64,000 nucleotides of DNA from Candidatus Dojkabacteria bacterium. Its GTDB lineage: Bacteria; Patescibacteriota; Dojkabacteria; SC72; JAHDCA01. The stretch lies in contig CP129478.1 of assembly GCA_030583845.1 (NCBI GenBank), positions 971,686 through 1,035,685 on the forward strand, in the 5' to 3' direction. Below the pieces are notes generated by a model, which was given only the letters and a program-made list of their open reading frames with translations, did no database searches and was not told the origin of the DNA. Made by a program: the position numbers and the translations under genes. This document shows positions 42,945 through 61,352 of the stretch, piece by piece (position 1 is the stretch's first letter; the number at the start of each line of letters is the position of its first letter).

Positions 42945-43022
42945 GGTGGATGTAGCTCAATTGGTTAGAGCATCGGTTTGTGGAACCGAGGGTTGTGGGT
43001 TCAAGCCCCATCTTCCACCCCA
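42945..43022 (+). tRNA. tRNA-His (anticodon GTG) with genomically encoded G-1
   Basis: G-1 + GTGGATG acceptor, anticodon loop TTGTGGA, T-arm GTGGGTTCAAGCCCCAT, discriminator C73 pairing with G-1, and CCA. Confidence 0.85.
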
Positions 43023-43050
43023 TTCGTGACTCTTGGCAGAATTGAAGATA
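43015..43050. repeat. Direct repeat copy 1, overlapping the last 8 nt of tRNA-His; putative attL-like islet boundary
   Basis: 'ccaccccattcgtgactcttggcagaattgaagata' versus 47671-47702 'ccacattcgtgactcttagcgaattcgaatat' (13-mer exact core, about 26/32 overall). Confidence 0.5.
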
Positions 43051-43295
43051 GAATCAAACGGTTTTATCCAGTCATAACGCAGTTTTCCATCCTTGATAGA
43101 TAGGTTCTGAAGTGTAAGTGTGATAAGTTGTCGTTTCTGATCAGGTTCAGAACCCATAAATAGCTCATGACTTCTTGAAGCTAGGTTTAATAGCATTGCA
43201 GAGGTAATATAGTACTCTTCGTCTGCTTGGCTTATTAAGTTAAGCCTGTCTTCATTGTTTTTTCTGTTTAGTCCATTTAGCTCGTAAATTGTCAT
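43023..43295 (-). CDS. Hypothetical protein (islet-internal). The ORF-track model runs 66 nt into tRNA-His, so the true C-terminus is uncertain.
   Basis: 112-aa ORF whose last 22 codons are the tRNA-His complement. Confidence 0.25.
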
Positions 43296-43386
43296 ATTGG
43301 TCTGGAGTAGTACCCTTCACCCATTAACTTTTCTAATTCTTCTTTAATAGTTGATATGTTCATAGAATAAAATTTACCCCAAAATA

Positions 43387-45678: not shown

Positions 45679-45684
45679 GTTATC

Positions 45685-46800
45685 TTATGATTTTATATTA
45701 TCAATGAGAGTTGTGTATGGAATACCTGTGCTTTCGGATATTTGTTGTTTTGTAAATCCTAAATTTGTTAATTCTTGAGCTATTTTGTAAGCATCATTTT
45801 TGTTCAGTATATTTTCCATCTGCAATACTAAAAAGAGTTCTTTTAGCGAGATTATTGTAATATTTTCACTATTTTCTGCTAGTGCTAGTTTTCGTTTAAT
45901 TCTTAAAGAGATTTGTTGTATTGCTGAGCCACTTAGCCCATCGCTATATTTAACGAGTAGTTTAAGAGGTAAGTCGTTAGTACTATTCGATAAGTATGTT
46001 TGAAATAACTGTCGTCTCTCTGATATAAGTGGTAATTTTAACTCTAACCGTGTTTCAAATCTTCTCCAGAGTGCTTTATCTAAGAGTGAGTCGTGGTTTG
46101 TCGCTCCAATTAATATCGAGGATTTAGGGAAGTTGTCTATATTTTGTAGAAGTACTGTCACGACTCTTTTTAATTCTCCAAGCTCTGATGAATCATCTCT
46201 GTGTTTAGCTATTGTATCAATTTCATCCAGAAAGATTATAACATTCTCGTTTTTCGCTATTTCAAATATGGAACGAATATTCTTACCTGTTTTACCTAAG
46301 TACGAGGAAACTATTTCGTCTAATCTTACTAATATTAAAGGAAGATTTAACTCGTTAGCTATTGCATTCGCAAGAATTGTCTTTCCTGTGCCTGGTGCTC
46401 CATAAAGTAATATTGAATTAGAAGGGTAAATGTTCTCTTTTTCAAGCTTGTCACGTGCTTTCCACTCTTGAAGCCAGCTATTAATAACTTTGTGAGTAAA
46501 CTTGTCTAAAGTTACATTTGAAATAGAGATTTTTGGTGTGTTACGTTCATATAGATTCTCGTTTTTATCAATTATAATGTTGGCTCTTGTTTTTTGTCCT
46601 GAGAAACTATCTAGGAGCATCATTTCTGAGCGTATCTTTTCCAAACGTTTAACTATTTTATAATGGCCCTTTGCTTTCGCTTCTTCAATTTCCTGAATTA
46701 TCATTTTATTGACAATATTAATATTGTTCTCGGAAGCTGCTTTAATAAATTTTTCTACGAAATCAACTTTAAAGGACATTTCCGTATTTGCATAATACAT
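45685..46800 (-). CDS. AAA+ ATPase (classic AAA clade); IetA-like candidate
   Basis: 'LLYGAPGTGKT', 'IIFLDEIDTI' and 'ILIGATNHDSLLDKALWRRFE'. It is 7 nt upstream of, and co-oriented with, the S8 peptidase. Confidence 0.8.
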   Translation of the reverse strand: MYYANTEMSFKVDFVEKFIKAASENNINIVNKMIIQEIEEAKAKGHYKIVKRLEKIRSEMMLLDSFSGQKTRANIIIDKNENLYERNTPKISISNVTLDKFTHKVINSWLQEWKARDKLEKENIYPSNSILLYGAPGTGKTILANAIANELNLPLILVRLDEIVSSYLGKTGKNIRSIFEIAKNENVIIFLDEIDTIAKHRDDSSELGELKRVVTVLLQNIDNFPKSSILIGATNHDSLLDKALWRRFETRLELKLPLISERRQLFQTYLSNSTNDLPLKLLVKYSDGLSGSAIQQISLRIKRKLALAENSENITIISLKELFLVLQMENILNKNDAYKIAQELTNLGFTKQQISESTGIPYTTLIDNIKS

Positions 46801-46972
46801 TACTATATAAGTATAGGTTACAACTATAATTACGAATATGCAAGTATATATAATTCCGTAATAAGTCGTTAGCTGGCAAATTGTCGAAAATTGTTCGCGC
46901 TGAGATTGAAGCTTATCTTCAGGTTTAAGAATGCGTCACACAAAGCACCCCAATAAATACTCCATACTCACC

Positions 46973-47617
46973 TTAGCTGATAAATTCGACAATAACCTTA
47001 TTAACCTCTTCTAGAACTTTTGGTTGATACTGGTACTTATGCTCCATTTCAGGAATCTGACACCATTCTTTTGGCGCATTTGCTTTATCAAAGATCTTTC
47101 TGGTTACCGACATTGGAACCTTCTCATCTTCTTCACCAACAACAAATAAAACTGGGCAGGTAACATTCTGAATATAATCAATTGCATTATATTCTTGGGC
47201 ATCCTCAATAAACGAAAAGGGAATACTGAGCTCACCAAACTTTGAAGAAGTAACTTTGCGATAACCTGTTTCTTTCCACTCCTTATACTTTCCAGCTAGG
47301 TCATACTCACTTCCAACCTGATAAGGACTTACAATTAAGCCAAGTTTCTTCGGAGGGAATTCAGTTGCTAGGAGAGTTGCAATTATTCCTCCCATAGAGA
47401 ACCCTAGAATTATGAGTTCTTTGCTTTCTATCGCATTGAGAGTTGCTCTTGCAGTTGCGATGGTTTCTGAAAAACTATACTTGCTCATTTTATCAGGGAT
47501 GTGAGGCCATGCAATCTTAGTCACTATGTGACCAGTGGCTTGAAGCTCTTCTCCCAATTCTTTGAAAGTGACTTCTTCTGGATAACCGGTGAACCCCGGT
47601 ATAATTAATATGTCCAT
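46973..47617 (-). CDS. Alpha/beta-hydrolase (esterase) family protein
   Basis: Nucleophile elbow 'GFSMGG'. Confidence 0.65.
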   Translation of the reverse strand: MDILIIPGFTGYPEEVTFKELGEELQATGHIVTKIAWPHIPDKMSKYSFSETIATARATLNAIESKELIILGFSMGGIIATLLATEFPPKKLGLIVSPYQVGSEYDLAGKYKEWKETGYRKVTSSKFGELSIPFSFIEDAQEYNAIDYIQNVTCPVLFVVGEEDEKVPMSVTRKIFDKANAPKEWCQIPEMEHKYQYQPKVLEEVNKVIVEFIS

Positions 47618-47670
47618 AAACCAATTATAACTTCTAAAAGAAAATAGTTCCTAATCTCGTCAACTAACTG

Positions 47671-47702
47671 ACCACATTCGTGACTCTTAGCGAATTCGAA
47701 TA
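47671..47702. repeat. Direct repeat copy 2; putative attR-like islet boundary
   Basis: See copy 1. Confidence 0.5.
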
Positions 47703-47812
47703 TGGACGATAAATCTGCAGGTCAGAGTCTTGACCCTATGTGAGTCATAATTTCATCTAGCCTTGCTATCAAATCCTCCAATATCTATTCTAGCTTAGCT
47801 ATCTTCCAATCA

Positions 47813-48013
47813 CTACACACCCTCAAAAAGCGTCTCAACAAAGTTAAGAATCAAACCCATCGTTTTATCGGTAAGTGATCGCCTCTCGAGGATTTTGGGA
47901 GGGGTATTTAATGACTTAACAACCTCATCTCCAATATGCTTTCTCTCTGTAAATAGATATTCATCAATAATTTCTTGAACTTTAGATTCGTTAAGATCAT
48001 TTTCTGCACACAT
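47813..48013 (-). CDS. Small hypothetical protein
   Basis: 66-aa ORF; no motif. Confidence 0.3.
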   Translation of the reverse strand: MCAENDLNESKVQEIIDEYLFTERKHIGDEVVKSLNTPPKILERRSLTDKTMGLILNFVETLFEGV

Positions 48014-48230
48014 TTTCTTGAACTACCTGGAATTTCCGGGTAGTTGAGTTTCTATCTAACTCGCCTACTTTATATATGTTTTGAGAAGGCTCATAACTGT
48101 GTTAGTGTCTTTATCAAACAGTTTCTCTATATGTTTTTGGGTTAACCAAACGGTCTCATTTTCGAGATTAACCTCAACTGTTATTACACGGTCTGATCTT
48201 TGTAAAAGATGAGCTCTTTTTTTAAGAAAT

Positions 48231-49802
48231 TTATAAAAAGTACTGACTCATATATTGCCTCAATGAATCATCAACTATATATACATATGTTCCGTTAATA
48301 CCACGAGTGAGTAGAGTTGTATATATGTTCTTTATGTATGCTTCTAATTCTGCTGGATCAGAAATTGCTCTCTTTCCATTGAAGTCGAGGTATTTTGATT
48401 TATCAACAACCACTTTATGTTTGTTTTTGTCGTAAGAAATCTCGGGTCCAATTATTACACCTGCATAATTCAGATCATAGCCCTGAATCGTGTGAATACA
48501 CCCAATTTCATTTACTGCATTAGGTGAATTAACCCAATCTTCTGTGACACTATTCCACTTAAGCCGTGTGCCGTCAATTTCAATATCATAATCGATCTCA
48601 TTGTTTCCTTTGGTCTTCCATTCCCAGGCATATCCTGCGAGTATCCTTGAAAGACTGTAATCATAATCCTTTTCTTTGATTGCCAAGACCATATCTTTTA
48701 TATTATTAAAGAGTTTGAATTCATAGGTATAGAATTTATTTGGATACGGATTGGAGCAGTTTAAAATATCCCTTATATATTCTATATAGTCCATTCCTCC
48801 ATTGACTCTCATCTGAGAAGTTAATTTGTGGTTTACAAAGGAAATATTGTCTAATGCGTTATATTTAATGTCAGCTGGCTTTACTGACTGATACTTGTCA
48901 TAAAATAGCACTTGATGCTTTGATGATTGCAGGATCCAGTCTAATTGTGTAGCAGAGTCTTTCTCAAGTCCTAAAGATGCAGAGATCTTATCGAAATCTC
49001 TATAGTTTGTTAGGTTTACCCGTCTTTGTAGCCGATGGGCTTCGTCAACAATCAAGATATCGTACTTTTTCCTTACTACATCATTAGGACCAATTACCAT
49101 ACCTGGCGTTAGACCCTTAATATTTCTAAAGACGCGCTTAAGTGTTTTACGAAGCGATGTCATTGGAATAACAAGACCTATCTCTAAGTCTTTAGACCAT
49201 TTCTTCATGCTTAATGCTTTTACTAGATAGGTGGCTACAATTGTCTTCCCCGTTCCTGGCTCACCGGATACAAGATGGGGAATTCTTTCCCCAAATTTAA
49301 TACTGGACATTATCTTATCAACGACGTCTAGCTGATCTTGCGAGAGGGCTTTGTACGGAGAATATTTAAACAAATCACTATTTTGAATTTGAACAAGATC
49401 ATTATCGACTACTTTTAACTTTTGAAGTTCTTTCCAAATAGTCTCAAATTTAGCTTGATAACGCTCTCTATCGTAATAATTTGACTCCTGTATTCCAAAA
49501 TTAGCATTTTGTAATAGGTATTTACCATCGCCGGACATATATCTAATCAAGGAGGATTCTATGTCAAGCGTAGCAGACTTGTTATATTCATCATCTGCAA
49601 TTATATACATTGAGTTTAGCTTAGCCCTGTCTGCCTTCTCGAAATGCTGGCTAGCCCGTCTATATGCTGCTGTAGTTTCTCCAATATAGGCTTCCTTACC
49701 GTCTTCAAGAATATACACTATTGGCCAATTCTCACCGTATCGATAATCCCTTACATTTGTAAATTGATCCTTCCTGTAATTAAATTTCTTGATCTCGTAC
49801 AT
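48231..49802 (-). CDS. GIY-YIG nuclease domain fused to a DUF2075-type P-loop ATPase/helicase-like domain
   Basis: N-terminal 'PIVYILEDGKEAYIGETT...YRRASQH' (GIY-YIG). Walker A 'GEPGTGKT' and Walker B 'ILIVDEAHRLQ', with overall shape like DUF2075 proteins. Confidence 0.65.
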   Translation of the reverse strand: MYEIKKFNYRKDQFTNVRDYRYGENWPIVYILEDGKEAYIGETTAAYRRASQHFEKADRAKLNSMYIIADDEYNKSATLDIESSLIRYMSGDGKYLLQNANFGIQESNYYDRERYQAKFETIWKELQKLKVVDNDLVQIQNSDLFKYSPYKALSQDQLDVVDKIMSSIKFGERIPHLVSGEPGTGKTIVATYLVKALSMKKWSKDLEIGLVIPMTSLRKTLKRVFRNIKGLTPGMVIGPNDVVRKKYDILIVDEAHRLQRRVNLTNYRDFDKISASLGLEKDSATQLDWILQSSKHQVLFYDKYQSVKPADIKYNALDNISFVNHKLTSQMRVNGGMDYIEYIRDILNCSNPYPNKFYTYEFKLFNNIKDMVLAIKEKDYDYSLSRILAGYAWEWKTKGNNEIDYDIEIDGTRLKWNSVTEDWVNSPNAVNEIGCIHTIQGYDLNYAGVIIGPEISYDKNKHKVVVDKSKYLDFNGKRAISDPAELEAYIKNIYTTLLTRGINGTYVYIVDDSLRQYMSQYFL

Positions 49803-49804
49803 AG

Positions 49805-50131
49805 CTATTTCTTGAATTTGGTATATTTGGTGGCATTACCTTTAGCTTTCTCAACAGGATATTTTTCTTCACTTATTGCTAATTTATCTGAAGCTACTTT
49901 TTCAAGGTCAATATCTAGTGAATTTGCAAACAGAAGAAGATAGGTATAGAGGTCTGCTACTTCTGATTTAACATCCTCTAGGTCATATTTATCCGTCCAC
50001 TGGAAGCATTCTAATAACTCTCCTGCTTCGATAGATAATGATTTGGCAAGATTTTGCGGGGTATGGAACTGTTTCCAATCTCTTGCATCCCGAAAATTTA
50101 TGAGTCTTTCTAGTAATTTTGAGTGTTTCAT
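49805..50131 (-). CDS. MazG-like nucleoside triphosphate pyrophosphohydrolase (small, YpjD-like)
   Basis: 'LSIEAGELLECFQW' and 'EVADLYTYLLLFANSLDIDLE' (EExxE / ExxD helices of the MazG fold). Its stop is 3 nt from the next gene's start. Confidence 0.7.
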   Translation of the reverse strand: MKHSKLLERLINFRDARDWKQFHTPQNLAKSLSIEAGELLECFQWTDKYDLEDVKSEVADLYTYLLLFANSLDIDLEKVASDKLAISEEKYPVEKAKGNATKYTKFKK

Positions 50132-50266: not shown

Positions 50267-50770
50267 GTGGTCTTTTCACTCATAGGCCTTTATACTACCC
50301 CAATGCGAATCAACCTAAAAAAATACTACATAGAAATCCAATCGCCCACACTCTGCACCCTCATAGGCAGACTAAATGGCTTTGCCAACCCAGAAAGCGT
50401 CAAAGCTGGAGCATTTTACCCTTTCCTCTACCTCCGTTTTCCAGACCATCCAAATAACCCCACATGGATAAATCACGAGAAGATTCATTTTCGCCAGCAG
50501 TTGGAGTTACTTTTCATATTCTATTTCATCTTTATCGCGGCAGAGCGAATCTATTACAGATACTTCCGAAAATTATCACCATTAGACTCATATCTTGCAT
50601 CTGCATTTGAGCAGGAGTGCTACATCAATCAGAGTGATACACTGTATCTGAGTAGGCGAAGGCCGTATGCATTTCTGAAGTATATGCGTGAGAAGAGAAC
50701 TATTAGGTTTGTTGATAGAGAGGGGAATATAACGATCACAAATGACGAGCTTATCGCAATCAATAGTTAA
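50267..50770 (+). CDS. Hypothetical protein with an HExxH motif ('HEKIH'); its 3' end is copy 1 of an 89-bp repeat
   Basis: 167-aa ORF; C-terminal 'YLSRRRPYAFLKYMREKRTIRF' recurs at 58549-58637. Confidence 0.45.
   Translation: MVFSLIGLYTTPMRINLKKYYIEIQSPTLCTLIGRLNGFANPESVKAGAFYPFLYLRFPDHPNNPTWINHEKIHFRQQLELLFIFYFIFIAAERIYYRYFRKLSPLDSYLASAFEQECYINQSDTLYLSRRRPYAFLKYMREKRTIRFVDREGNITITNDELIAINS
50642..50730. repeat. 89-bp direct repeat, copy 1 (3' end of CDS 50267-50770)
   Basis: About 90% identical to 58549-58637, including a 31-nt exact block 'tatgcatttctgaagtatatgcgtgagaaga'. Confidence 0.85.
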
Positions 50771-50799
50771 AAATAACGATTAACAAGGTATAAGAATAA

Positions 50800-51282
50800 G
50801 TGAAAAAGTTCATGTTTGAGCCACTAATATATACATTTAAGAACTTCCCTTACAAATCCTGTCTAGGGCTGTCAGTATTTGAGTTTCATAAACTAACGTC
50901 CGATTTTCAGCTTTTTCAGGATGAAATTATAAAGTTGAAACCTACAATCGTTATAGGCGTAGCCAAAAGCCCTACAAACAAATCAAATTTCGAGAGTAGA
51001 GCAGTAAATCAATACAACCATGCTAAGAAGTTGGATGTAGGGGGCATTTATGAATATACTCTTGATTACCCAGAAAATGGATTTGGCAGTATTGGCATAA
51101 GCGCTGACTTTACCGATAGCTTTTGTAATTGGACAATGTATAGGATTTCGCAAATATTAGTTGGTACTGACACTAGATTACAGTTCATTCATATAGCAGA
51201 ACCAGATCTACCAGACATGGAAAAGTATCTGATGTATATCAGAGATAATAAGGTTCAATACTTATCTGTTTCAGATTCCTAA
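50800..51282 (+). CDS. Hypothetical protein
   Basis: 160-aa ORF. Confidence 0.45.
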   Translation: MKKFMFEPLIYTFKNFPYKSCLGLSVFEFHKLTSDFQLFQDEIIKLKPTIVIGVAKSPTNKSNFESRAVNQYNHAKKLDVGGIYEYTLDYPENGFGSIGISADFTDSFCNWTMYRISQILVGTDTRLQFIHIAEPDLPDMEKYLMYIRDNKVQYLSVSDS

Positions 51283-51358
51283 AATTTCGTTTGAAATGTA
51301 TAATTCACGAAATTCCTGCCCCATTTTCTTTTTACATAGCGATGAAATGCATAATTAA

Positions 51359-52048
51359 ATGAGTAAAGCATCCTTTGTAAGTGCACATAATAAAAAGGAT
51401 TGGCCATCTACCGGGAATAGATATCAACAGATCGAAGATGCAATCAGACTCAAGACAGTGTCAATTGTTGAGCTGATAGAACACAGAAAACGGAATGGAC
51501 TTCCGTCAAATGTGCTCGATCTCTTTGGACCGGGAGGTAACACAGGAAAAGCATTCATGCGAAAAGCGGACAGTTGGACCGGCATTAGATTAAATCCAGG
51601 TATAAATACACATGCAGAAGTGCTTGTAGCTGACCTATTTGATCCTGTGGCTAGAGATTCGATATGTTTGCCCGTTCAGCCAGATATTATCCTATGTAAT
51701 CCAATCGGTGCATTTGGTTTAGAAGGGATTAGAGGCCTAGACTATAAAGATTGGAGCATTTTCATGCAAGAATTTTATAGCTGGGCATATTCACACCTCT
51801 CATCAAATTACGGATTAATGTTTTCAGAATTAATGTCGTTTGTTCCAGATGGAATCTACTATAAAGCATGGCCCGAAATGTACAGGGACATGGTGAGCCA
51901 ATATATAACTGGATTGAGATCTCAAGGAGTTAATGTCACAGTACCAGCTTTAGAAACTGACACAGATGCGATGAGATCCATATTATTTGAGAAAGGTCCT
52001 GATTCGCCACACTGTTTACAGTTTGTTGAAATTGACTTGCAGGTATAA
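51359..52048 (+). CDS. Hypothetical protein with weak SAM-methyltransferase-like motifs
   Basis: 'VLDLFGPGGNTG' (motif I-like) and 'ILCNPIGAFG' (motif IV-like); tentative. Confidence 0.35.
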   Translation: MSKASFVSAHNKKDWPSTGNRYQQIEDAIRLKTVSIVELIEHRKRNGLPSNVLDLFGPGGNTGKAFMRKADSWTGIRLNPGINTHAEVLVADLFDPVARDSICLPVQPDIILCNPIGAFGLEGIRGLDYKDWSIFMQEFYSWAYSHLSSNYGLMFSELMSFVPDGIYYKAWPEMYRDMVSQYITGLRSQGVNVTVPALETDTDAMRSILFEKGPDSPHCLQFVEIDLQV

Positions 52049-52176
52049 TTTGGGGCTCACACTAGTCAAGAACCTAGCCATCATACAAACACCATTTCCC
52101 ATCCATTGAGACCCAACAATAATGTCCGTTTTACATCTCCCTGGGAATAAGTCTACCTCTTTCTTGCATACTTCTC

Positions 52177-52701
52177 CTACTTAATCCCATACTTACCATC
52201 AACAGAATCCCTAAACAAAGGCAGCCTTAACGGTTTGAAGCTTAATATCCCAAAAATTATGCTCTGCCCAAAAATAACTAGAAGAATTACCCACATAGGT
52301 AGTTCAAAATTAGTATTAATATACAAGAAATAGGAGGTTAGCTGACCTAAAATTATCGCAATTAGAAATACAGCTAAATCTAATACTAATACGTTCTTTC
52401 CTAGAATCCTTGGATAGATCCATTCTGCAACTAAAATAAAGAGGATCATGACATAAATCCCGATAATTTCAGAACTAAAAAATTTCAACGTAGACTGGTT
52501 TAATAAAATGTATTGAAAGATTGCAAAAATTAAAGCTGGATAAAAAGCGATCTTCAAATGTTCCCAAATACTTTCATTAACAGGACTAAATATAGCCATC
52601 CAAGGCCTTTTACCTCCATATTTATAAAGAAAGTGAAAAAATGAGCCTAAGATGAATATTATTGGGATTCCTATTAATTCAACAATAGCTATTTGATTCA
52701 T
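52177..52701 (-). CDS. Polytopic small membrane protein
   Basis: 174 aa, about 5 TM. Confidence 0.5.
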   Translation of the reverse strand: MNQIAIVELIGIPIIFILGSFFHFLYKYGGKRPWMAIFSPVNESIWEHLKIAFYPALIFAIFQYILLNQSTLKFFSSEIIGIYVMILFILVAEWIYPRILGKNVLVLDLAVFLIAIILGQLTSYFLYINTNFELPMWVILLVIFGQSIIFGILSFKPLRLPLFRDSVDGKYGIK

Positions 52702-52798
52702 GTGTTGTTCGTAATAGTGGAATAGCTAATTGTACACCATAACGTGGTATAATTACCTGGTGTCAGATTAAGTCAGTTTAAATTTAGCAAAGTCAGAA

Positions 52799-53164
52799 AT
52801 GTCAGAACAAAATAGATACTCTTCGCATTTTGTATGCGGAGTCATCAAATTCGACTACAAAGTCGCAGGTTTCAGAGATCTCATCACAGTCGCCCAGGAG
52901 TGGGCTAAAGACGAAAACTTCTACGAGCTAATCGTTCGTTCAGTCTCAGACAAAAATTTTGGACTTCAATTTACATATTATGCAGAGGGAACAGTAGGAG
53001 GCTGGTTTGGTGATACATACATCAAACCGCTTTTAGCGAAGTTCCCATCATATGCGGTAGATGTAGCCTATGATGGTCGTACCCGAGAGGAAGTAAAAGC
53101 GGAGGTACTAGACGGGGTAGTGGTTAGCAAATCATTGCCTATTGGGAAGGTGGTGAAGGAGTAG
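52799..53164 (+). CDS. Hypothetical protein
   Basis: 121-aa ORF. Confidence 0.45.
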   Translation: MSEQNRYSSHFVCGVIKFDYKVAGFRDLITVAQEWAKDENFYELIVRSVSDKNFGLQFTYYAEGTVGGWFGDTYIKPLLAKFPSYAVDVAYDGRTREEVKAEVLDGVVVSKSLPIGKVVKE

Positions 53165-53418
53165 GGTAGCATTTGTTGCCTAGCCGGCATCTCTGACACC
53201 AGCTGGCTAGGGAATGCTTAACTAACACAGATCTACTCTAGGATATCACTTATAGCTATTTTTCCGTGTAAGGTAAAAAACTATATTAGAATAACACTTG
53301 AGAATCACAGTTTACGTTATGACACAGATATACTACTGAAATACATAGAGGGAGTCGTAAGTGATTCTGAAAATATGGAATGTCGCAATTTATTTTAACG
53401 AGATAAACTAAAGTATTT

Positions 53419-54447
53419 ATGAAGATTATATTTTTTGTAGTTAAAGGATTGGAAGATATTGCAGAAAACGAACTGATGCAATTTGGCGTAGAGATAGAAA
53501 AGGTTGATACGAAATAAATTGTTGGTTCTTTCGCAGGTGACTTACATGATTTGTGCAATTTAAAAACTGTTGATGATTTAGCATTACTCTTTGATTCCTT
53601 TGAGGTAGGTAAGAATACGGTGATAGAAGATATTATAGAGCACGTCAGCAAAGCAAACATCAAACAATATATTCAAGTAATTGAGCAGCTAAGAGAGCTA
53701 TCAAGTAACTTCTCAATAACGATAAGCAAATACAAATCCACTGCAGATACATATGAACTGAAAGCGCAATTAGCCAGTCAACTAAGCTCTGAGCTAGATA
53801 TGCAGTTCACAGAGAAAGAGCATGAGAATTTTGACGTGCGAATAAGCATAGGGCAACAGAGGGTAGTCTTGGCTATACGCTTGTTTGCAAAACCTTTGCA
53901 TGATCGAGAATACGTTACACATAATTATTTAGGTTCATTAAAACCGACCATATCAGCATCGCTTTATAAAATGGCTTGCTCAAAAATAAAAGATAAAGAT
54001 AAAGTACAATTAGTTGATAATTTTTGCGGTAGTGGCACGATACTATGTGAGTCATTTCTACAAGGTGCAGAGGTCTCGGGTGGTGATGTGAGCCCGGAAG
54101 CTGTGAAGATGGCAGGGGAGAATTTGAAAGCTGTTGGAGCTAAAGACTTTACTCTTAAGATAGAATCTGCCTTTTCCACAGATTGGGATGAGGCGCAGTT
54201 TAACCTAGCTATTTCAAATCCACCATGGGGTGAACAACTTGAGGTTGCAAGTATGACTGAACTTTATGAAAAATCAGTAAGAGAGTATAAAAGAATATTA
54301 ACCGATGACGCTGTACTTTGCTTTATTGTCAAGAAACCTGACCTCCTAATAAAGTTTATAAAATCTCATTTCCCTAAGCATAGAATAGAAAGCCGCACTA
54401 TTAGTTTTAACGGCCAGCAGCCAACTATTGTTATTGCTTATCTATAA
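53419..54447 (+). pseudogene. THUMP/RlmL-like SAM-dependent RNA (m2G-type) methyltransferase interrupted by a single in-frame TAA at 53515-53517. The intact downstream ORF starts at TTG 53551.
   Basis: Upstream mini-ORF 'MKIIFFVVKGLEDIAENELMQFGVEIEKVDTK*' is in the same frame and continues 'IVGSFAGDLHDL...'. Downstream are 'DNFCGSGTIL' (motif I) and 'SNPPWG' (motif IV). Confidence 0.55.
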
Positions 54448-55402
54448 TATTTGTAAACTAATCGCTATGAAATATGACAACGCTACTATACGAGATAATA
54501 TTGTCAGGAGTATCGAAACAAATTACCAAATAGTTGTCGATACTGTGAGCTTTATCCCAATTGGTGAAGAAAGTTATTCCTACAAAATTAAAGGTAAGAA
54601 TAGTCAGACGTTTTTCGCCAAGTACTGTGCCAAGAAAGAAATCATTGCAAGTATTGATATAGTAAACGAGCTATTACTAAAATTAAGCAATTTTGAATTT
54701 GTAGTTCCTCCAATTCAAATAAGAGGTAAAACCTCATGCTCAGTATTGGAAGGTAAACTCTACCTGTTTCCATTTATTAATGGCACAAATATTAGCTTAG
54801 GTAATCATGATTGGGATAAAACCCTCTATGAAAGGATTTTCGACATAATGATTAAAATTCACAATTCAACTCACATTATTAATCTTAATTTACCTAAAGA
54901 AACATTTGAGAATAACTTTATTGATAGGCTTAATCTATTAGTGTCTGTAGTAGGCAACAATCAAAATTATGACAAACAAACAAACGAATTGTTGATTATG
55001 AACGAAACACTAATTCGTAAAATTATAAATCAACACACCTTATTAGGAGCGATGTATAAGAAAAAGAATTTGAGATTTGTTCTGACTCACGGTGATATTA
55101 CGGGTTTGAATATAATTAAAACAACAAAAGGGATGAAGTTAATTGATTGGGACGGTGCAATGTTTACTCCTTCCGAAAGAGACCTTAACTTTCTTTCATC
55201 AAATAAACATTTTTCAATAAAGAAATATATTACAGAAACTAAAAGTAAACATTACCCCGACTTATTAGACTACTACGGACAGCAATGGTCACTAAATAGT
55301 ATTTTAGAGAATTTCGAAGCGTTACTTTCTTCGAATATGACTAATATAAATAAAGATGACTGTATCGATGAAATTAACGAATATTTGTCATACTATAAAT
55401 AA
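54428..55402 (+). CDS. Aminoglycoside/choline-kinase-like phosphotransferase (APH fold)
   Basis: Catalytic 'LTHGDITGLN' (HGDxxxxN) and 'LIDWDGA' (DxD metal site). Confidence 0.6.
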   Translation: MLLLIYNICKLIAMKYDNATIRDNIVRSIETNYQIVVDTVSFIPIGEESYSYKIKGKNSQTFFAKYCAKKEIIASIDIVNELLLKLSNFEFVVPPIQIRGKTSCSVLEGKLYLFPFINGTNISLGNHDWDKTLYERIFDIMIKIHNSTHIINLNLPKETFENNFIDRLNLLVSVVGNNQNYDKQTNELLIMNETLIRKIINQHTLLGAMYKKKNLRFVLTHGDITGLNIIKTTKGMKLIDWDGAMFTPSERDLNFLSSNKHFSIKKYITETKSKHYPDLLDYYGQQWSLNSILENFEALLSSNMTNINKDDCIDEINEYLSYYK

Positions 55403-55563
55403 GTTTAGAGAGGGTGCTTAAGGAGGGATATGAAAATTACTTACATTAGGGTTGTTCCAGTCATAAAGCAGAAAAGCTATTTATAAACGACCTCCATTTT
55501 ATTGCACCTATGATTCTGATACTATTAGTAGCAGATATCTAAATTAATTGCCTTCCCCACTCA

Positions 55564-56334
55564 ATGAACGACAAAACCATGAAAGGACTTAACAGATCAA
55601 ATCTCGCACTATCAGCACTTCATTTCGCACAAGCATTAGCTGTGCTCTTTCTATCGAGTGCTGACCAAGGAGTCGTCCCGATTACGACCAATTACTTAAA
55701 ATTTGATCCAGCTACAAGCGCTTTAGCACCTGCAACTACCGAGCTATTTACAGTGAATCTGGCATGGTTTGTTGTTATATTTTTCTTGATCTGCTCATTA
55801 GCACATCTGAGTATTGCAACTGTATATCGCAAGAGATATGAATCAGACTTAAAGGTAGGGATAAACAAAGCAAGATGGATAGAGTACTCATTAAGCGCAA
55901 GCGTGATGATGCTGGCAATAAGCTTCCTGACCGGAATCTACGATATTTCCAGCCTAATAATGATCTTCACCCTTGTAGCTTTAATGAACCTGCTTGGACT
56001 TGCAATGGAGCTGATCAACAAAGGGAAGGAGAAGACCGACTGGTATACATACTGGCTGGGCTGTATAGCGGGGATTGTGCCCTGGATAGTGTTTGGGGTG
56101 TATGTCTTTGGCGCTAACAAGTATGGCGGTGGCAATATTCCTGACTTTGTGTACTGGATCTATGTCTCGATATTTATTTTCTTCAATTGCTTTGCGGTGA
56201 ATATGTTCTTGCAGTACAAGAAGATAGGGCCATGGAGGGATTATCTATACGGCGAGCGTGTTTATATGATTCTGAGTTTGGTAGCTAAGTCGCTACTCGC
56301 GTGGCAGGTGTTTGCTGGAGTTCTGAGACCTTAG
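55564..56334 (+). CDS. Heliorhodopsin
   Basis: 7-TM, 256 aa, with near-identical blocks to heliorhodopsin 48C12 as I recall it: 'RWIEYSLSASVMM', 'WLGCIAGIVPWI', 'FVYWIYVSIFIFFN', 'LQYKKIGPWRDYLYGERVYMILSLVAKSLLAWQVF'. The Schiff-base Lys lies in 'SLVAKS'. Confidence 0.85.
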   Translation: MNDKTMKGLNRSNLALSALHFAQALAVLFLSSADQGVVPITTNYLKFDPATSALAPATTELFTVNLAWFVVIFFLICSLAHLSIATVYRKRYESDLKVGINKARWIEYSLSASVMMLAISFLTGIYDISSLIMIFTLVALMNLLGLAMELINKGKEKTDWYTYWLGCIAGIVPWIVFGVYVFGANKYGGGNIPDFVYWIYVSIFIFFNCFAVNMFLQYKKIGPWRDYLYGERVYMILSLVAKSLLAWQVFAGVLRP

Positions 56335-56484
56335 AATTTTACAGAGCCGAAGTTACGGGTTTAATTGAATAATGAAACCTTATACCCACGGCCGTTATTG
56401 CGTTTGTAGTAGAAGTAATACTTGCGTGAATTGTGGTAGTATAAAGAAATAAAAATCATCCCTACTAGAACCTAATCAAAACAG

Positions 56485-58539
56485 ATGAGCACACTTAGTC
56501 GGAGACAGCTATTTACCCCGAGAACTTATAGCCACGAATATTCCAGCGCACAAGATGGCATGGCACAGGTAGAAAACGAGCAACAGCAAACAGCCTTCAA
56601 GAATGCGTATTCTCTAGCTATTGAAGGAGAGCCGATGTCCCAAGAGCGCTCTAGGATGATTCAAGAAGAGGCATTGAAATTCCCACCAAATATCTCTCCA
56701 AATGCTATGACCGTGGGTAGCGGCAAACCATTTGATGTTATTACTATAATAAATTATCAGTCAGTCGATCAAATCGATCAAAAGACAGGGCAGGGTATCG
56801 CTGCCCAAGCAGACCAACGGCAAGGGACTATAACTTACTTTAAACCTGAACAAAGAGGCGTTTTTTACCACGAATTGATGCATCTTGTCGACGCATCGTA
56901 CGGCTCAATTTTCAGTGACGCTAAGTTTACCGAATGGAGTGAAGATCGTTGGCCCCAACAGAATCGCGATGGGCTACCTGTGCATATGGAAAATATATAC
57001 AGCACTAAAGATTATGCAGAGTTTTTCGCAACAGCTGCAGAGTCACTCATGAAAAACCCCTCCGACCGCCTCGGTATGTTTGGTGTAACTGGTCTGACTC
57101 GTGAAGAGAAGATCAAGAAGGTAACAACGATTGCGATGCTTGAAGCTCTTAGAACCACTACGCGGGGCTTTATGGGAAAGGATTATTGGTATCAATCTAT
57201 AGCAGGACGAATGCACTGGAGGTACTGGCTAGAAGCGAAGCAGGAAGAATTTGCTGAATTTAATGTTGCAAAATATGTTGAGCTGAATGACTCAGAGAAA
57301 ACACCAGCAATAGCATTTGTTACGCAGAATAATCAACCGATTAACGCTCCTTTGCAAGAAAGCTCCGAGTATCAGTTGCATTCAAACGTTGACCATTACA
57401 TCGTTACTCACAATGGTACAAGCATAGGAATAGAGCTAGGTGTAAATGCTACAGGTTTGCGGATAATAACTGCTGATGAGAAGGTTCTTGATTTTACTAT
57501 CACTACAGACCCTATTGCGGTTGAAAATAAACTAATGCTCGTTCAAGAGAGCTTATTATCCGACTTTTCTGGATCAAGCAGCTCGATAGTTATGCCGCCA
57601 TTGATGATAACCCAATTGTATCCGTTGATAATAGCCGCTCGCGAGCGCTCACACATTAATAATACGAATACGCCCTCAACGGTAGATTACCAACCACCTA
57701 TGTCAACGACCAACAAACTGTCGAGAAGAGACTTCCTTAGACTAGGCGCGGTTTTTGCCACAATGTTGACGGCAGCTGCACTTGCTGGTTGCTCACCCTT
57801 GCCCACACCACCCGAGCCAACAGCTATAGGCAACTCGTCAACCGCAATGCCAGATCTCCCTTCTCCTGCTGACTATTCGTTACTTGAGCAGAAGTATAGA
57901 GCCTACAAAGTCTTTGATCCATACCCACGTGTAGAAACTGTGCCAGTGCCTGGAGTGTACATGAGTGAGACAAAATACAGACCAGATATCATTAAGTACG
58001 CTGACAGCATCAAGATCGTAGACGGTCAACTAGTGGTGATAATTAATGGCATACCATTTACCCAAGAAGACACGAGATTCAAAAGCGAACTTACATTTGT
58101 AAATCGGAACGATGCTACCGTTTTTCACCCATCAGCGACTTCCGCAAATTTCATTATAAAGATGGGCGCCGCAGCTCAAACCCACGAGATAATTAATATG
58201 ATTAGTACATCAGTTGAAATTGTTAAACAACAGTATCCAGGTGCGGAAATGCTTTCAGTCGGCACATTAAGTGACACCACTGTAGGCGATGGGCTCGATT
58301 CTCTACAGTATGATAACACGATCCAAGATACTCTATGGTTATATAGAGGTTACACAATAGCTGCCCCGCGTATACAGGAGATGATTGATGATTCTGCTCT
58401 ATATTTTGTACTTCGAACCAGCGACAACCAGATAAGGTGTGTGAAATTCTTTCAGATACTGCCACCGAGAGATCTTATTGATAATAGCCAGCTGCCAAAG
58501 TCACTCATGGATCAAGCAAGGTTAGTGCTTGGAGGGTAG
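56485..58539 (+). CDS. Large hypothetical protein. It has an N-terminal HExxH (zincin-like) region and an internal Tat-signal/lipobox-like segment; possibly a fusion of two genes.
   Basis: 'FYHELMHLVD' at about aa 130. At about aa 404, 'MSTTNKLSRRDFLRLGAVFATMLTAAALAGCS' has a Tat motif plus lipobox. The N-terminus 'MSTLSRRQLF' echoes it. Confidence 0.5.
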   Translation: MSTLSRRQLFTPRTYSHEYSSAQDGMAQVENEQQQTAFKNAYSLAIEGEPMSQERSRMIQEEALKFPPNISPNAMTVGSGKPFDVITIINYQSVDQIDQKTGQGIAAQADQRQGTITYFKPEQRGVFYHELMHLVDASYGSIFSDAKFTEWSEDRWPQQNRDGLPVHMENIYSTKDYAEFFATAAESLMKNPSDRLGMFGVTGLTREEKIKKVTTIAMLEALRTTTRGFMGKDYWYQSIAGRMHWRYWLEAKQEEFAEFNVAKYVELNDSEKTPAIAFVTQNNQPINAPLQESSEYQLHSNVDHYIVTHNGTSIGIELGVNATGLRIITADEKVLDFTITTDPIAVENKLMLVQESLLSDFSGSSSSIVMPPLMITQLYPLIIAARERSHINNTNTPSTVDYQPPMSTTNKLSRRDFLRLGAVFATMLTAAALAGCSPLPTPPEPTAIGNSSTAMPDLPSPADYSLLEQKYRAYKVFDPYPRVETVPVPGVYMSETKYRPDIIKYADSIKIVDGQLVVIINGIPFTQEDTRFKSELTFVNRNDATVFHPSATSANFIIKMGAAAQTHEIINMISTSVEIVKQQYPGAEMLSVGTLSDTTVGDGLDSLQYDNTIQDTLWLYRGYTIAAPRIQEMIDDSALYFVLRTSDNQIRCVKFFQILPPRDLIDNSQLPKSLMDQARLVLGG

Positions 58540-58548
58540 GGTGACGTG

Positions 58549-58637
58549 CAGTATCTGAGTAGGCGAAAGCCCTATGCATTTCTGAAGTATATGCGTGAGA
58601 AGATTAAGATTAGGTTTATTGATAAAGTGGGGATATT
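58549..58637. repeat. 89-bp direct repeat, copy 2 (immediately after, and in frame with, the TAG stop of CDS 56485-58539)
   Basis: See copy 1. It would encode 'VQYLSRRKPYAFLKYMREKIKIRFIDKVGILM*'. Confidence 0.85.
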
Positions 58638-58655
58638 AATGTGAACCTCTCACAG

Positions 58656-59483
58656 TTACGCGACCACACCCTCATATATGCAGTATCGCAGATACCCTTT
58701 CCTAGCCAACTTGTAATATTCTACCGCAGCAGTCGCATTTATGAAGGTCTTTTGTAGACCAAACAGCCTAATAAAGAAATATGGGAATCTGGCAAACCTG
58801 TACAACCTCCTGAATGATTTCTCAGCCTCAAGACTTACGTCCGTGACTTTAACATCTCTAAAGCCTGTTTTTTCCAACAGCTCCTTAAAAGTATTTCCTG
58901 TAAATTTGTCTAGACTAGCCATTGATGACCCCTCGTTAACCAGATCGTACATTCGCTTTTCATACTCGGTTAGTTCTACATCTTCATCAATCTTATATTC
59001 GAAGAAAACTGACTTCCGACCAGGCTTGACGACCCTGAAAGCCTCTTCAACCGCCTTAGCCAAGTCAGTAGCATGAGATAGTGTCTCTACAGCATATAAT
59101 CCATCAAAGCTATCATGCTCAAATGGAAGCTCCTGATACGATCCGTTGATAAATGTCGGAGGGTTATCGAGCATTGAATTGTTTTTCTTTGCTTCTTCTA
59201 CGATATAAGGGGTAAGATCGATACCAGTTATGTCTAAGCCATACCTTTGCGATAGGTCTTTCGCAACAATCCCTCTACCGCACCCTATATCGAGTACTTT
59301 GTGACCGGCTTCTAGATCGAGCTGCGCGAAGATTCTATCGTGGTGTCGCTTCTGTGCCTCCCATTCAGAGATGTTGGAATCACCGACAAGCGGATAAAGA
59401 CCGAAATGCTGTGCATCTCTTAGGAATAGTCGATATCCGATTCTTGACTCTTTTTTCCCGTAATAATCCTCGACTGTAGCCAT
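58656..59483 (-). CDS. Class I SAM-dependent methyltransferase
   Basis: Motif I 'VLDIGCGRGIVAKDL' and 'DGLYAVETLSHA'. Confidence 0.75.
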   Translation of the reverse strand: MATVEDYYGKKESRIGYRLFLRDAQHFGLYPLVGDSNISEWEAQKRHHDRIFAQLDLEAGHKVLDIGCGRGIVAKDLSQRYGLDITGIDLTPYIVEEAKKNNSMLDNPPTFINGSYQELPFEHDSFDGLYAVETLSHATDLAKAVEEAFRVVKPGRKSVFFEYKIDEDVELTEYEKRMYDLVNEGSSMASLDKFTGNTFKELLEKTGFRDVKVTDVSLEAEKSFRRLYRFARFPYFFIRLFGLQKTFINATAAVEYYKLARKGYLRYCIYEGVVA

Positions 59484-59544
59484 ATTATTGGTATTTTAAC
59501 ACAATTAGGAATCTATCCTGCCGCTAAATATGGTATAACCGCCC

Positions 59545-60192
59545 ATGTATGAATCTATTATCGCTAAAGCACTTCAACAAAGAGCAGAATACCAACTCCG
59601 CCACCAAGCCTTTCCGTGGGGAAATATGCCGAGCGAGGGTTTTGAAGCATGCTTGACCGACCCGTATGGTGAACCGTTCGAGATCTGTACTATAACTTCT
59701 GCTGGAGTACTTGTTGTTACACACAATCTTTCAGGTGGGCTTTCTGTCTTGTTTGTCAACGAAGAGGGAAATAGATGGGATATACCTTCAGAACACGTAG
59801 AATTAACAGATAGATCGCCAGCGGATACAGCAAGGCGCGAATTTCTAGAGGAAACAAGGCTCCAACTCACAACAGAACTGTATCCATTAACCTATTCAAT
59901 TAGACACAACAGTAGTAGAAGAATTGGACTGCAGTTTGTTACAGCTGCCAGCCACTTCCCAGAGCTGAATGCCGATACTTTGATTAGAGAGGACGACTTG
60001 GGCAGATTTTACTACCAGATACCTACTGAAACTGGCTTATATAGCATGGCAGAAGAGCCAATAGAGGTTTTCTTCTCGCCTAGAGACACATTGCTAAGCC
60101 TCTACAGCCGTAACCAGTGGGCATACACAAAAACCTTGGCTGCATTGGAAGAAAAAGTCGCACTTCTGCATGAGTCAGGGCTGTTACCGTAA
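59545..60192 (+). CDS. NUDIX hydrolase
   Basis: Nudix box 'PSEHVELTDRSPADTARREFLEETRLQL' (GX5EX7REUXEEXGU-like). Confidence 0.65.
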   Translation: MYESIIAKALQQRAEYQLRHQAFPWGNMPSEGFEACLTDPYGEPFEICTITSAGVLVVTHNLSGGLSVLFVNEEGNRWDIPSEHVELTDRSPADTARREFLEETRLQLTTELYPLTYSIRHNSSRRIGLQFVTAASHFPELNADTLIREDDLGRFYYQIPTETGLYSMAEEPIEVFFSPRDTLLSLYSRNQWAYTKTLAALEEKVALLHESGLLP

Positions 60193-60333
60193 AGAATCCT
60201 CTTCTAAAGCGATTTTATAATGATGTGGTTGATGGAGTGCTGTTTAAAAAGCAGACAGATGAGTGGCAAATGCCCTCAGAACCATCCACTCTATGGAAAC
60301 ATAGAGAAGCCTAAGACCACACGGAGGTGAGGT

Positions 60334-60672
60334 ATGTCAAACACATACCTGTTGTTCGCTTCTGCAGCGTTAGTGACTTTAGGCGCCTTCTTGGGGACTA
60401 GAAACAGGCGCTGGTTGCTTGTTTCCGTCGCCGGGACAGTCAGCCTGATATTTTTATGGCTGACCAACGGAAGCGAGCAGATATGGCAAGCGAATCTCTT
60501 CATCGGTGGTCTTCTGATTCTCTCCACTGTTGGGCCAATTAGCCAAAGGGCTAAAATATTGGCACAGCAAGGCGAGAAGCAGAGATCCTCGAGATGGGGG
60601 ATAGCCGCGGGCATCATTACGCTGATAAGTTCGGCACTAATGTTGCCATGGCCAATCTCCCAGCTGGGATAG
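60334..60672 (+). CDS. Small membrane protein (3-4 TM)
   Basis: 112-aa hydrophobic ORF; the overlapping minus ORF 60291-60692 looks less protein-like. Confidence 0.35.
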   Translation: MSNTYLLFASAALVTLGAFLGTRNRRWLLVSVAGTVSLIFLWLTNGSEQIWQANLFIGGLLILSTVGPISQRAKILAQQGEKQRSSRWGIAAGIITLISSALMLPWPISQLG

Positions 60673-60773
60673 GCTTGTCCTGGAGCTACCAATAAGTCCG
60701 CTTATGGGTAGCTCCACTTCAATATATGGTTGGAACTCACGAGATTCACAACAAAATAGACTATAATAGTCAG

Positions 60774-61352
60774 ATGAAAACCCTTAGCCGCACATTCTTC
60801 AGACGACCGCCAGAGCAGGTAGCACCCGATCTACTAGGCAAGCTACTAGTGAGAGAACTAGGCGGCCAACTACTAATAGGCAGAATCGTCGAGACAGAGG
60901 CATACCTAGCAGAAGATGATGACGCAGCTCACGCATCAAGAGGCAAAACAGCTGCCAATTCATCGCTTTTTCTGGACGGAGGACACGCCTATGTCCATCG
61001 AATCCACACATATTACTGCCTTGACGCTGTATGCCAGACACAAAATGCTGGGGGAAGTGTGCTTATCAGGGCGCTAGAGCCAATCCAAGGGATTGAGGCT
61101 ATGAAGAAGCTGAGAAATAAGCAAGGGCTCATGGATCTGACTACAGGGCCAGGTAAGCTATGCATGGCATTCGGCATTGATAAGAGCCTGGATGGCATTG
61201 ATCTTACAAGAAATGATTCACCATTAAGGATATGTGACGCAAATAGTAGTGGTAAATTTGCTGTAGAGATCTCTCGAAGGATAGGTATTAGTAAATCAAC
61301 TGAGTTTGAGCTAAGGTATGCACTCTCAGAAAGCAAGTTTGTATCTAGGTAG
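60774..61352 (+). CDS. DNA-3-methyladenine glycosylase (AAG/Mpg family). Start moved to the internal ATG.
   Basis: 'FFRRPPEQVAPDLLGKLLV', 'IVETEAYLAEDDDAAHASRGKT' and 'HAYVHRIHTYYCLD' match the Mpg family. Confidence 0.8.
   Translation: MKTLSRTFFRRPPEQVAPDLLGKLLVRELGGQLLIGRIVETEAYLAEDDDAAHASRGKTAANSSLFLDGGHAYVHRIHTYYCLDAVCQTQNAGGSVLIRALEPIQGIEAMKKLRNKQGLMDLTTGPGKLCMAFGIDKSLDGIDLTRNDSPLRICDANSSGKFAVEISRRIGISKSTEFELRYALSESKFVSR

Follow-up and report, generated by a model that had tools for sequence, protein, structure and literature searches.

Two direct repeats bracket a 7.9-kb segment in the window studied here (the whole 64,000-nt stretch of a Candidatus Dojkabacteria bacterium genome that was analysed), the first copy forming the 3′ end of a gene for a small HExxH protein and the second following directly, in the same frame, on the TAG stop codon of a 684-aa open reading frame (ORF). 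This arrangement raises the question of whether the second copy is a hidden tail of the 684-aa protein, a small gene in its own right, or what a rearrangement has left behind. We conclude that copy 2 is not a hidden tail of the 684-aa protein, and that it is a non-functional 3′ gene remnant and recombination scar, with a probability of roughly 0.85.

The direct repeat, which an earlier note on this DNA had described, proved to be real: the repeat search returned 50631-50726 and 58538-58633 as a pair of 96 nt with 84% identity and a start-to-start spacing of 7907, and over 50631-50731 and 58538-58638 the copies are about 82-85% identical, with 18 mismatches in 101 nt. Across the 89 nt delimited earlier (50642-50730 and 58549-58637), the identity is 85.4% instead of the approximately 90% then given, and the similarity does not begin 10 nt past the TAG, as had been stated, but already at the stop codon itself (TAG GGT GAC versus CAG AGT GAT). 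The mismatches are clustered, leaving a run of 31 nt without any (permutation P = 0.012), and the 53 nt around this perfect core contain only two mismatches, whereas the repeat arms are about 30% different. Of the 17 core codons, only one differs between the copies, and this change is synonymous; the differences of copy 2 from copy 1 in the tail are almost all non-synonymous. The window contains the core 30-mer at exactly two places, and it is absent from all of 100 shuffles. An identical core embedded in more diverged arms, as is characteristic of e14-type integration, is therefore seen at this repeat pair with modest support, the statistical case for a separate core standing at P about 0.01.

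The earlier note correctly recognized copy 1 as the 3′ end of the small coding sequence, except that the gene starts in the NCBI annotation at 50303, not at 50267 (Table 1). Its product matches phrog_15610, an uncharacterised family labelled 'protease' (E = 6e-16), with which it shares two invariant motifs, INHEKIH and FExE, as well as the terminal YLxxRxxYAWLKY; the region 50303-50770 thus encodes INHEKIH, FExE(A/C)Y and the C-terminal YLxxRxxYA(W/F)LKY within the family length range of 105-155 aa, although the protein is extended at its N-terminus and also carries a tail of 25 residues modelled with low confidence. The conserved C-terminus of the family, YLxxRxPYA[FW]LKY, is what copy 1 encodes, and in every family member this module ends a free-standing protein of approximately 105-155 aa. 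The AlphaFold model of the small protein (pLDDT 84) found no meaningful match in the PDB (best E = 2.5), and PDB sequence searches with the small protein or its family found none. The family is common in phage and viral contigs, with at least 427 relatives, while the nearest homologues, 143 and 145 aa long, share 53% identity and lie in unrelated gene contexts. In 80 viral loci the small family is an internal phage gene whose 3′ end is never duplicated, and its downstream neighbours, 60 of which were scanned in viral loci, are ordinary phage genes without an integrase among them; therefore, the small gene is not a recognised integration target.

Copy 2 comprises the last 34 codons only of a gene of this family. 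It was rightly placed in the frame of the 684-aa ORF, its codons 58540-58641 reading GDVQYLSRRKPYAFLKYMREKIKIRFIDKVGILM ahead of a TGA, but it carries only the last of the phrog_15610 motifs, without the HExxH and FExE part and without a start of its own, and the sequence upstream of it bears no resemblance to the remainder of the small gene; it is thus a gene fragment instead of a member of the family. Its stop codon and that of the convergent methyltransferase gene form what looks like a native, compact gene end.

Table 1. Coordinates of the features discussed, in positions of the window
Feature	Coordinates	Strand	Remarks
tRNA-His	42946-43022	+	left edge of low-GC island
Large serine recombinase, C-terminal stump	43020-43295	-	about 90 aa; 3′ end overlaps tRNA-His
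IetS-like S8 peptidase and IetA-like AAA ATPase (anti-phage pair)	43387-46800	-	
Second copy of the 36 nt 43017-43052	47671-47706	+	78% identical; tRNA end and recombinase gene end
Small HExxH protein gene, intact	50303-50770	+	155 aa, QY318_04815; HEKIH and FEQECY motif
Repeat copy 1	50631-50731	+	about residues 110-143 of the small protein, including the conserved C-terminal motif YLSRRRPYAFLKY
Perfect core, copy 1	50666-50696	+	31 nt; proposed crossover segment
Segment between repeats	50771-58536	.	eight ORFs, mosaic composition
160-aa ORF of no assigned family	50800-51282		between repeats
229-aa ORF of no assigned family	51359-52048		between repeats
DUF6512	52177-52701	-	between repeats
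121-aa ORF of no assigned family	52799-53164		between repeats
RMKL-like methyltransferase with in-frame TAA	53419-54447		between repeats
APH-family kinase	54428-55402		between repeats
Heliorhodopsin	55564-56334		between repeats
684-aa orphan ORF	56485-58539	+	659 aa at NCBI, QY318_04855; ends at TAG 58537-58539
Repeat copy 2	58538-58644	+	3′-terminal fragment of a small-HExxH-family gene; 34 codons and TGA 58642-58644
Perfect core, copy 2	58573-58603	+	31 nt, identical to that of copy 1
Class I SAM methyltransferase gene, convergent	58656-59483	-	stop codon 11 nt from fragment stop

The segment between the repeats is a mosaic in composition. In five of its genes GC3 is as low as 0.30-0.35, at or below the minimum (0.347) seen among 43 background genes, and one of the five is a pseudogene, whereas GC3 in the 121-aa ORF, the heliorhodopsin gene and the 684-aa ORF resembles that of the host (0.41-0.49). 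The heliorhodopsin looks native to the lineage, judging from the wide occurrence of heliorhodopsins 66-75% identical in Dojkabacteria; its synteny is not conserved in three Dojkabacteria relatives. As a separate observation, the 684-aa ORF contains an internal Tat-like lipoprotein signal from residue 406 (ATG at 57700), and its two halves are unrelated to each other. No integrase, excisionase or transposase was found among the ORFs at 50.8-58.5 kb with Pfam, NCBIfam, PHROGs and PADLOC, and a tblastn search with one serine and one tyrosine recombinase likewise gave none between the repeats. Its only match (43020-43280; 36% identity, E = 4e-10) covers the C-terminal 90 residues of a 'recombinase family protein' 499 aa in length and marks the stump beside the tRNA-His. 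The neighbourhood is demonstrably a site of repeated integration and decay of mobile DNA: the 36-nt copies at 43017-43052 and 47671-47706 bracket a module of IetAS plus a hydrolase, and the region also holds a C-terminal stump of hsdR and a methyltransferase pseudogene. The tRNA-His with its overlapping recombinase, imperfect repeat and IetAS, 7 kb to the left, resembles the tRNA islands that grow with large serine recombinases by tandem accretion; however, the tRNA is the target there, while the repeat studied here sits in a protein-coding gene, and no copy of the tRNA-His 3′ end was found as a distal island border or near the 50.6-58.6 kb repeat.

Based on these findings, we tentatively propose, at slightly less than even odds, that the two copies are the scar of an old insertion through a single (Campbell-type) crossover in the 3′ end of the small gene, and from the present arrangement we infer how the crossover took place, in which direction it ran and what the ancestral locus looked like. 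In that locus, the tRNA-His would have been followed by a small gene encoding about 144 aa (50303-50696 joined to 58604-58644), which converged on the gene for the methyltransferase. DNA bearing a diverged copy of approximately 100 nt of the small gene's 3′ end would then have come in and recombined with it inside the 31-53-nt near-identical core, upon which the small gene would still have had an uninterrupted reading frame, now closed by a surrogate 3′ end (the right arm of copy 1), and its original 3′ end (the right arm of copy 2) would have been displaced 7.9 kb downstream, to its present place immediately behind the TAG that ends the 684-aa ORF. The enzyme responsible may have been a recombinase that acted in trans or has been lost, or the host homologous-recombination machinery may have served instead. 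The expected empty-site junction would read GGCGAAGGCCG + core + TTAAGATTAGG, and the circle junction GGCGAAAGCCC + core + GAACTATTAGG.

The arrangement itself argues for such an insertion, since direct repeats flank the segment with the intact gene end at the left and a 3′-only fragment at the right, which is the asymmetry that integration at the 3′ end of a gene should leave, and since copy 2 aligns with the C-terminus of free-standing small proteins while the rest of the gene is missing upstream. The uneven distribution of mismatches, with a perfect core between divergent arms, points in the same direction, as does the position of the fragment stop next to that of the methyltransferase, where the rebuilt 144-aa gene would closely match the length of the two nearest homologues. 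It is also consistent with the host-like GC3 of the small gene (0.468) followed to the right by the five low-GC3 genes, one of them decayed, and with a neighbourhood containing the serine-recombinase stump, a second imperfect direct repeat and the hsdR stump. Furthermore, an established example of this architecture is e14 in E. coli, with the C-terminal pseudogene icdC flanking icd (PMC13626634). As with e14 and phage 21 in icd, a complete gene whose last part is supplied by the insert stands at one end, a diverged 3′ fragment of the same gene lies in direct orientation at the other, and an intact, if chimeric, gene would result if the two recombined (PMC13626634). However, e14 has its own integrase and excises upon SOS induction, whereas no recombinase lies between the repeats here, and within the present insert both the heliorhodopsin and the 684-aa ORF seem native. 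Besides the missing integrase and the mosaic insert with its native-looking genes, the modest statistical case for a distinct core and the finding that the small gene is not a recognised integration target in viral loci also count against the insertion. No empty site, circular junction or second example was found, and the collections searched contain no close relative of the locus: there was none of the flanking methyltransferase in the GTDB species genomes or JGI metagenomes, none of the small gene in the JGI metagenomes with the small-protein alignment as query, and none in the viral contigs scanned with a back-translated core pattern.

The same remnant could, though this is rather unlikely, be that of a truncated paralogue. 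Two full small genes, brought by two related mobile elements or an old duplication, would once have stood in direct orientation, and a deletion would have removed the 5′ two-thirds of the downstream copy with everything between that copy and the 684-aa ORF. Repeated arrival is plausible for a family that is phage-borne and so frequent in viral contigs, several other genes in the region are truncated, and neither the lack of an integrase between the repeats nor the native look of the heliorhodopsin and the 684-aa ORF would call for explanation. However, the perfect 31-nt core, with almost no synonymous change between arms diverged by about 30%, would need an extra process, namely gene conversion or purifying selection before the truncation, and it would be left unexplained why the remnant is the exact gene end abutting the convergent gene. 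Among the readings that the earlier note had offered, the recombination footprint is the class that is supported; that it inserted a heliorhodopsin cassette is doubtful in view of the host-like composition of the heliorhodopsin and the 684-aa ORF, the wide occurrence of such heliorhodopsins in Dojkabacteria and the lack of a recombinase between the repeats.

It is very improbable that the arrangement is an artefact of assembly or population mixture, in which an uninterrupted small gene and a separate 7.9-kb circle or a variant strain were joined via the shared core. Exact-protein look-ups for the locus gave only one extra contig, of the same strain, and this independent k-mer-based Logan contig (SRR24881069), 100% identical to 58574-61323, stops exactly at the core edge, so the core is a branch point in the read graph. 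However, only 31 nt are identical while the arms are about 30% diverged, so that ordinary reads span the core unambiguously, and the record is a 1.04-Mb contig. If Logan assemblies use k = 31, a break at a repeated 31-mer is expected for the integrated form too.

The idea that copy 2 belongs to the 684-aa protein, with the TAG being a sequencing error, a recent nonsense mutation or a readthrough site in a product of 718 aa with a shared C-terminal module, is largely refuted and has very little probability left. It was suggested by a tail that starts immediately at the TAG without a change of frame, and by the HExxH strings of both bracketing proteins, which had been pointed out earlier and are indeed present (HEKIH and HELMH), but the 684-aa ORF and the small family are not homologous (hhalign probability 0.05%). 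Among 5.8 billion proteins the ORF found only itself, and exhaustive HMMER against 1.84 billion representatives gave only one weak partial match; the comparison with orthologs that the earlier note had recommended thus offers none with a fused or conserved extension, and the tail comes from another family. In addition, TAG is the commonest stop in the window (31 of 60 long ORFs), so that neither a reassigned stop nor an unusual or leaky context is apparent, no Rfam or other RNA element and no terminator-like element was found in copy 2, an in-frame position is a one-in-three event, and the mostly non-synonymous changes of the tail also speak against it. Therefore, neither paralogues sharing a C-terminal module, one interrupted by a nonsense codon, nor stop-codon readthrough, both raised by the earlier note, is supported, the module always ending a free-standing protein. 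A functional mini-gene in copy 2 (32 codons from GTG 58546, whose peptide would mimic the small protein's C-terminus) has a negligible chance, because the GGAGG at 58531-58535, 10 nt upstream of that in-frame GTG, simply codes for the last Gly-Gly of the 684-aa ORF, a Shine-Dalgarno-like motif occurs at 0 of the 50 window gene starts checked, which deprives the GGAGG of meaning as a signal here and led to the rejection of a Shine-Dalgarno-driven mini-ORF, and no promoter-like site was found at copy 2.

For annotation, the 34 codons after the TAG are a gene fragment and should not be merged into the 684-aa protein. Overall, the finding is an ordinary one, a leftover gene tail from an old rearrangement in a region rich in mobile DNA, and it shows a reduced CPR genome with a local hotspot, at the tRNA-His island and the small-gene end, where foreign DNA builds up and decays. 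A further-reaching reading, which we regard as improbable, is that the 7.9-kb segment is an integrase-less cassette that would move or be lost when recombination, homologous or in trans, takes place at the 31-53-nt conserved core within a phage-derived gene for a small metalloprotease-like protein, and in that case the heliorhodopsin and its neighbours would be a gain-and-loss module in Dojkabacteria populations. If the direct repeats still recombine, the heliorhodopsin-containing block could be lost in one step, which would bear on the distribution of this light-sensing gene in Dojkabacteria.

A repeat search over 49-60.5 kb confirmed, with small corrections, the direct repeat that an earlier note had described as bracketing about 7.9 kb, and returned it as the sole outstanding one: 50631-50726 and 58538-58633 align over 96 nt at 84% identity, with a spacing of 7907 nt. 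The repeat itself stood but the claimed identity of ~90% did not, as 85.4% was measured over the span then proposed. A 31-nt core (50666-50696 and 58573-58603) is perfect in both copies; the window contains its 30-mer exactly two times, and none of 100 shuffles contains it. The 53 nt around the core hold 2 mismatches, while the arms differ by ~30% (permutation P = 0.012); the 17 core codons contain 1 synonymous change between copies, and the differences in the arms are nearly all non-synonymous. As claimed, copy 2 continues the frame of the 684-aa ORF, but it does not start 10 nt past the TAG, since in a gapped alignment similarity begins at the TAG itself; it stops near the stop of the fragment, with no alignable sequence up- or downstream of the copies. 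Copy 2 reads GDVQYLSRRKPYAFLKYMREKIKIRFIDKVGILM, followed by TGA at 58642-58644. Both locus-tagged proteins listed below have identical counterparts in a 'Candidatus Dojkabacteria bacterium' MAG, on a contig of 1,036,382 bp, so the window derives from a small CPR/Patescibacteria genome.

Features around the two repeat copies (window positions)
Feature	Position	Strand	Remark	Locus tag
tRNA-His	42946-43022			
Serine-recombinase C-terminal stump, ~90 aa	43020-43295	-	overlaps tRNA-His	
IetS/IetA-like anti-phage pair	43387-46800			
Hydrolase gene			after the IetS/IetA-like pair	
hsdR C-terminal stump	47813-48013			
GIY-YIG/DUF2075 (Schlafen-type) helicase	48231-49802			
MazG-like gene	49805-50131			
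Small CDS (155-aa HExxH protein)	50303-50770	+	copy 1 within 3′ end	QY318_04815
RMKL-like (UPF0020) methyltransferase	53419-54447		in-frame TAA at 53515-53517	
684-aa ORF	56485-58539	+	TAG 58537-58539	QY318_04855
Convergent class I SAM methyltransferase	58656-59483	-	right of copy 2	

Apart from itself, the small protein finds 36 relatives in the database; most are 105-123 aa long, and the two closest (53% identity) have 143 and 145 aa. Its family hits phrog_15610 (label 'protease', E = 6e-16) and no Pfam or NCBIfam model; the AlphaFold model of the small protein (mean pLDDT 84, confident to about residue 130) has no meaningful PDB fold match, nor does its sequence match any PDB entry. At least 427 relatives occur in IMG/VR contigs, inside co-directional phage gene arrays where the neighbours are helicases, capsid, portal and gp32-like genes, not integrases. 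In two IMG/VR contigs a 46-nt direct repeat (89% identical) flanks a small HExxH homologue (L019 3541-3586/4001-4046 and L020 4050-4095/4510-4555). Across the family INHEKIH and FExE are invariant and the C-terminal YLxxRxPYA(W/F)LKY is conserved. Because the repeat spans exactly this last motif plus the variable tail, and tblastx with the two closest homologues matches nothing but 58543-58590 at the copy 2 locus, copy 2 is the last 34 codons of a small-family gene and nothing more.

Copy 2 is very probably a gene remnant left by recombination, through either integration or truncation of a paralogue, and the best reading, at a probability of about 45%, treats the pair of copies as the scar of an e14-like recombination. 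In E. coli, e14 leaves icd intact with its end supplied by the element, and icdC, a C-terminal pseudogene, lies across the element (PMC13626634); likewise, the gene is complete here at the left copy, and at the right copy there is only a 3′ end, in direct orientation. A crossover inside the core between two diverged homologues would yield a perfect core within diverged arms, and joining the copy 1 left arm, the core and the copy 2 right arm would give a gene of 144 aa, which matches the closest homologues in length. The 11 nt between the stops of the fragment and the convergent methyltransferase gene also count for this reading, because a native gene end in a compact genome looks so.

Against integration, no recombinase lies within the 7.9 kb between the repeats, and the insert has a mosaic composition, with a heliorhodopsin typical of the lineage. 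With a background GC3 of 0.437 ± 0.046 (minimum 0.347), the small gene is host-like (0.468), five genes to its right fall to 0.30-0.35, and the 121-aa ORF, the heliorhodopsin (0.49) and the 684-aa ORF (0.41) are host-like. Among the five, the RMKL-like methyltransferase is probably a pseudogene or split gene, its TAA separating the first 32 codons (MKIIFFVVKGLEDIAENELMQFGVEIEKVDTK) from the remainder. Dojkabacteria commonly carry heliorhodopsins at 66-75% identity (see also PMC9166423), and in the three relatives compared these stand in contexts not syntenic with the window. Of the recombination footprint proposed earlier, the recombination itself survives, while the lineage-typical heliorhodopsin and the missing recombinase make the insertion of a heliorhodopsin cassette doubtful. 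No empty site was found, because GTDB species genomes, JGI metagenomes and viral contigs held no close relative of the locus, and 80 viral loci and 60 downstream neighbours gave no sign of the small family as a habitual integration target. The main rival, likewise within the remnant class, is that a second full-length paralogue of the small gene lost its 5′ two-thirds by deletion, which we regard as possible but somewhat less likely than integration.

As to the heliorhodopsin, an APH-family kinase lies directly upstream on the same strand both in the window (54428-56334) and in another Dojkabacteria genome, GCA_016929645.1 (L087 8903-10768), the two kinases being only very distantly related. 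The window and a third genome (L091 5260-10768) also share, at 34% identity, a DUF6512 membrane protein within 3-4 kb upstream of the heliorhodopsin; a loose functional linkage may lie behind this.

The more interesting alternatives of the earlier note are not supported. The 684-aa ORF matched only itself in a 5.8-billion-protein index, and an exhaustive HMMER search of 1.84 billion representatives added to the self-match just one weak hit over 58 residues (partial, E = 5e-6), so neither collection offers an ortholog in which the tail could be fused. HExxH strings are indeed present in both bracketing proteins, but not by shared origin: profile comparison of the ORF with the small family gave a probability of 0.05%, and the strings are therefore coincidental. 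TAG is the commonest stop in the window (31/60 long ORFs), and copy 2 is not accompanied by any Rfam family, terminator-like site or promoter-like site. Given these results and the non-synonymous arm changes, a shared C-terminal module, a nonsense-interrupted paralogue and stop-codon readthrough all lack support, and copy 2 is very unlikely to be a tail of the 684-aa protein, short of a base-call error at the TAG. An independent Logan contig (L005, SRR24881069) equals 58574-61323 at 100% identity and stops short of the TAG; it reproduces the right flank, and its end falls precisely one base within the core, as expected if the repeat makes a k-mer graph branch there.

Within the 684-aa ORF, residues 406-437, at an internal ATG (57700), form a canonical Tat-like lipoprotein signal (MSTTNKLSRRDFLRLGAVFATMLTAAALAGCS), and the N-terminus likewise begins MSTLSRRQLF; the two halves share no similarity. 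Possibly two genes have been read as one ORF here, or translation from the internal start yields the C-terminal 279 aa. Of 50 gene starts checked in the window, none is preceded by a Shine-Dalgarno-like motif in the adjoining 20 nt, and the upstream regions are AT-rich, several with TATAAT-like boxes close to the start, a pattern that points to non-SD or leaderless initiation in the genome.

Left of the small gene, 42946-50131 forms a low-GC defence island beside tRNA-His. GC drops from ~0.44 to 0.30-0.38 between 43,023 and ~55,450, starting at the 3′ end of the tRNA, where the stump of a large serine recombinase aligns at 36% identity (E = 4e-10) with the C-terminal end of a recombinase of 499 aa. 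The tRNA-end/recombinase-end junction is copied as a 36-nt imperfect direct repeat (43017-43052 and 47671-47706) that brackets the IetAS module, both copies encoding one recombinase C-terminal peptide, SIFxxAKSHExG. Several mobile elements have demonstrably entered this neighbourhood and decayed in it, which also counts for the integration reading. The repeat that brackets the 7.9 kb is real but ordinary, and copy 2 calls for annotation as a gene remnant.
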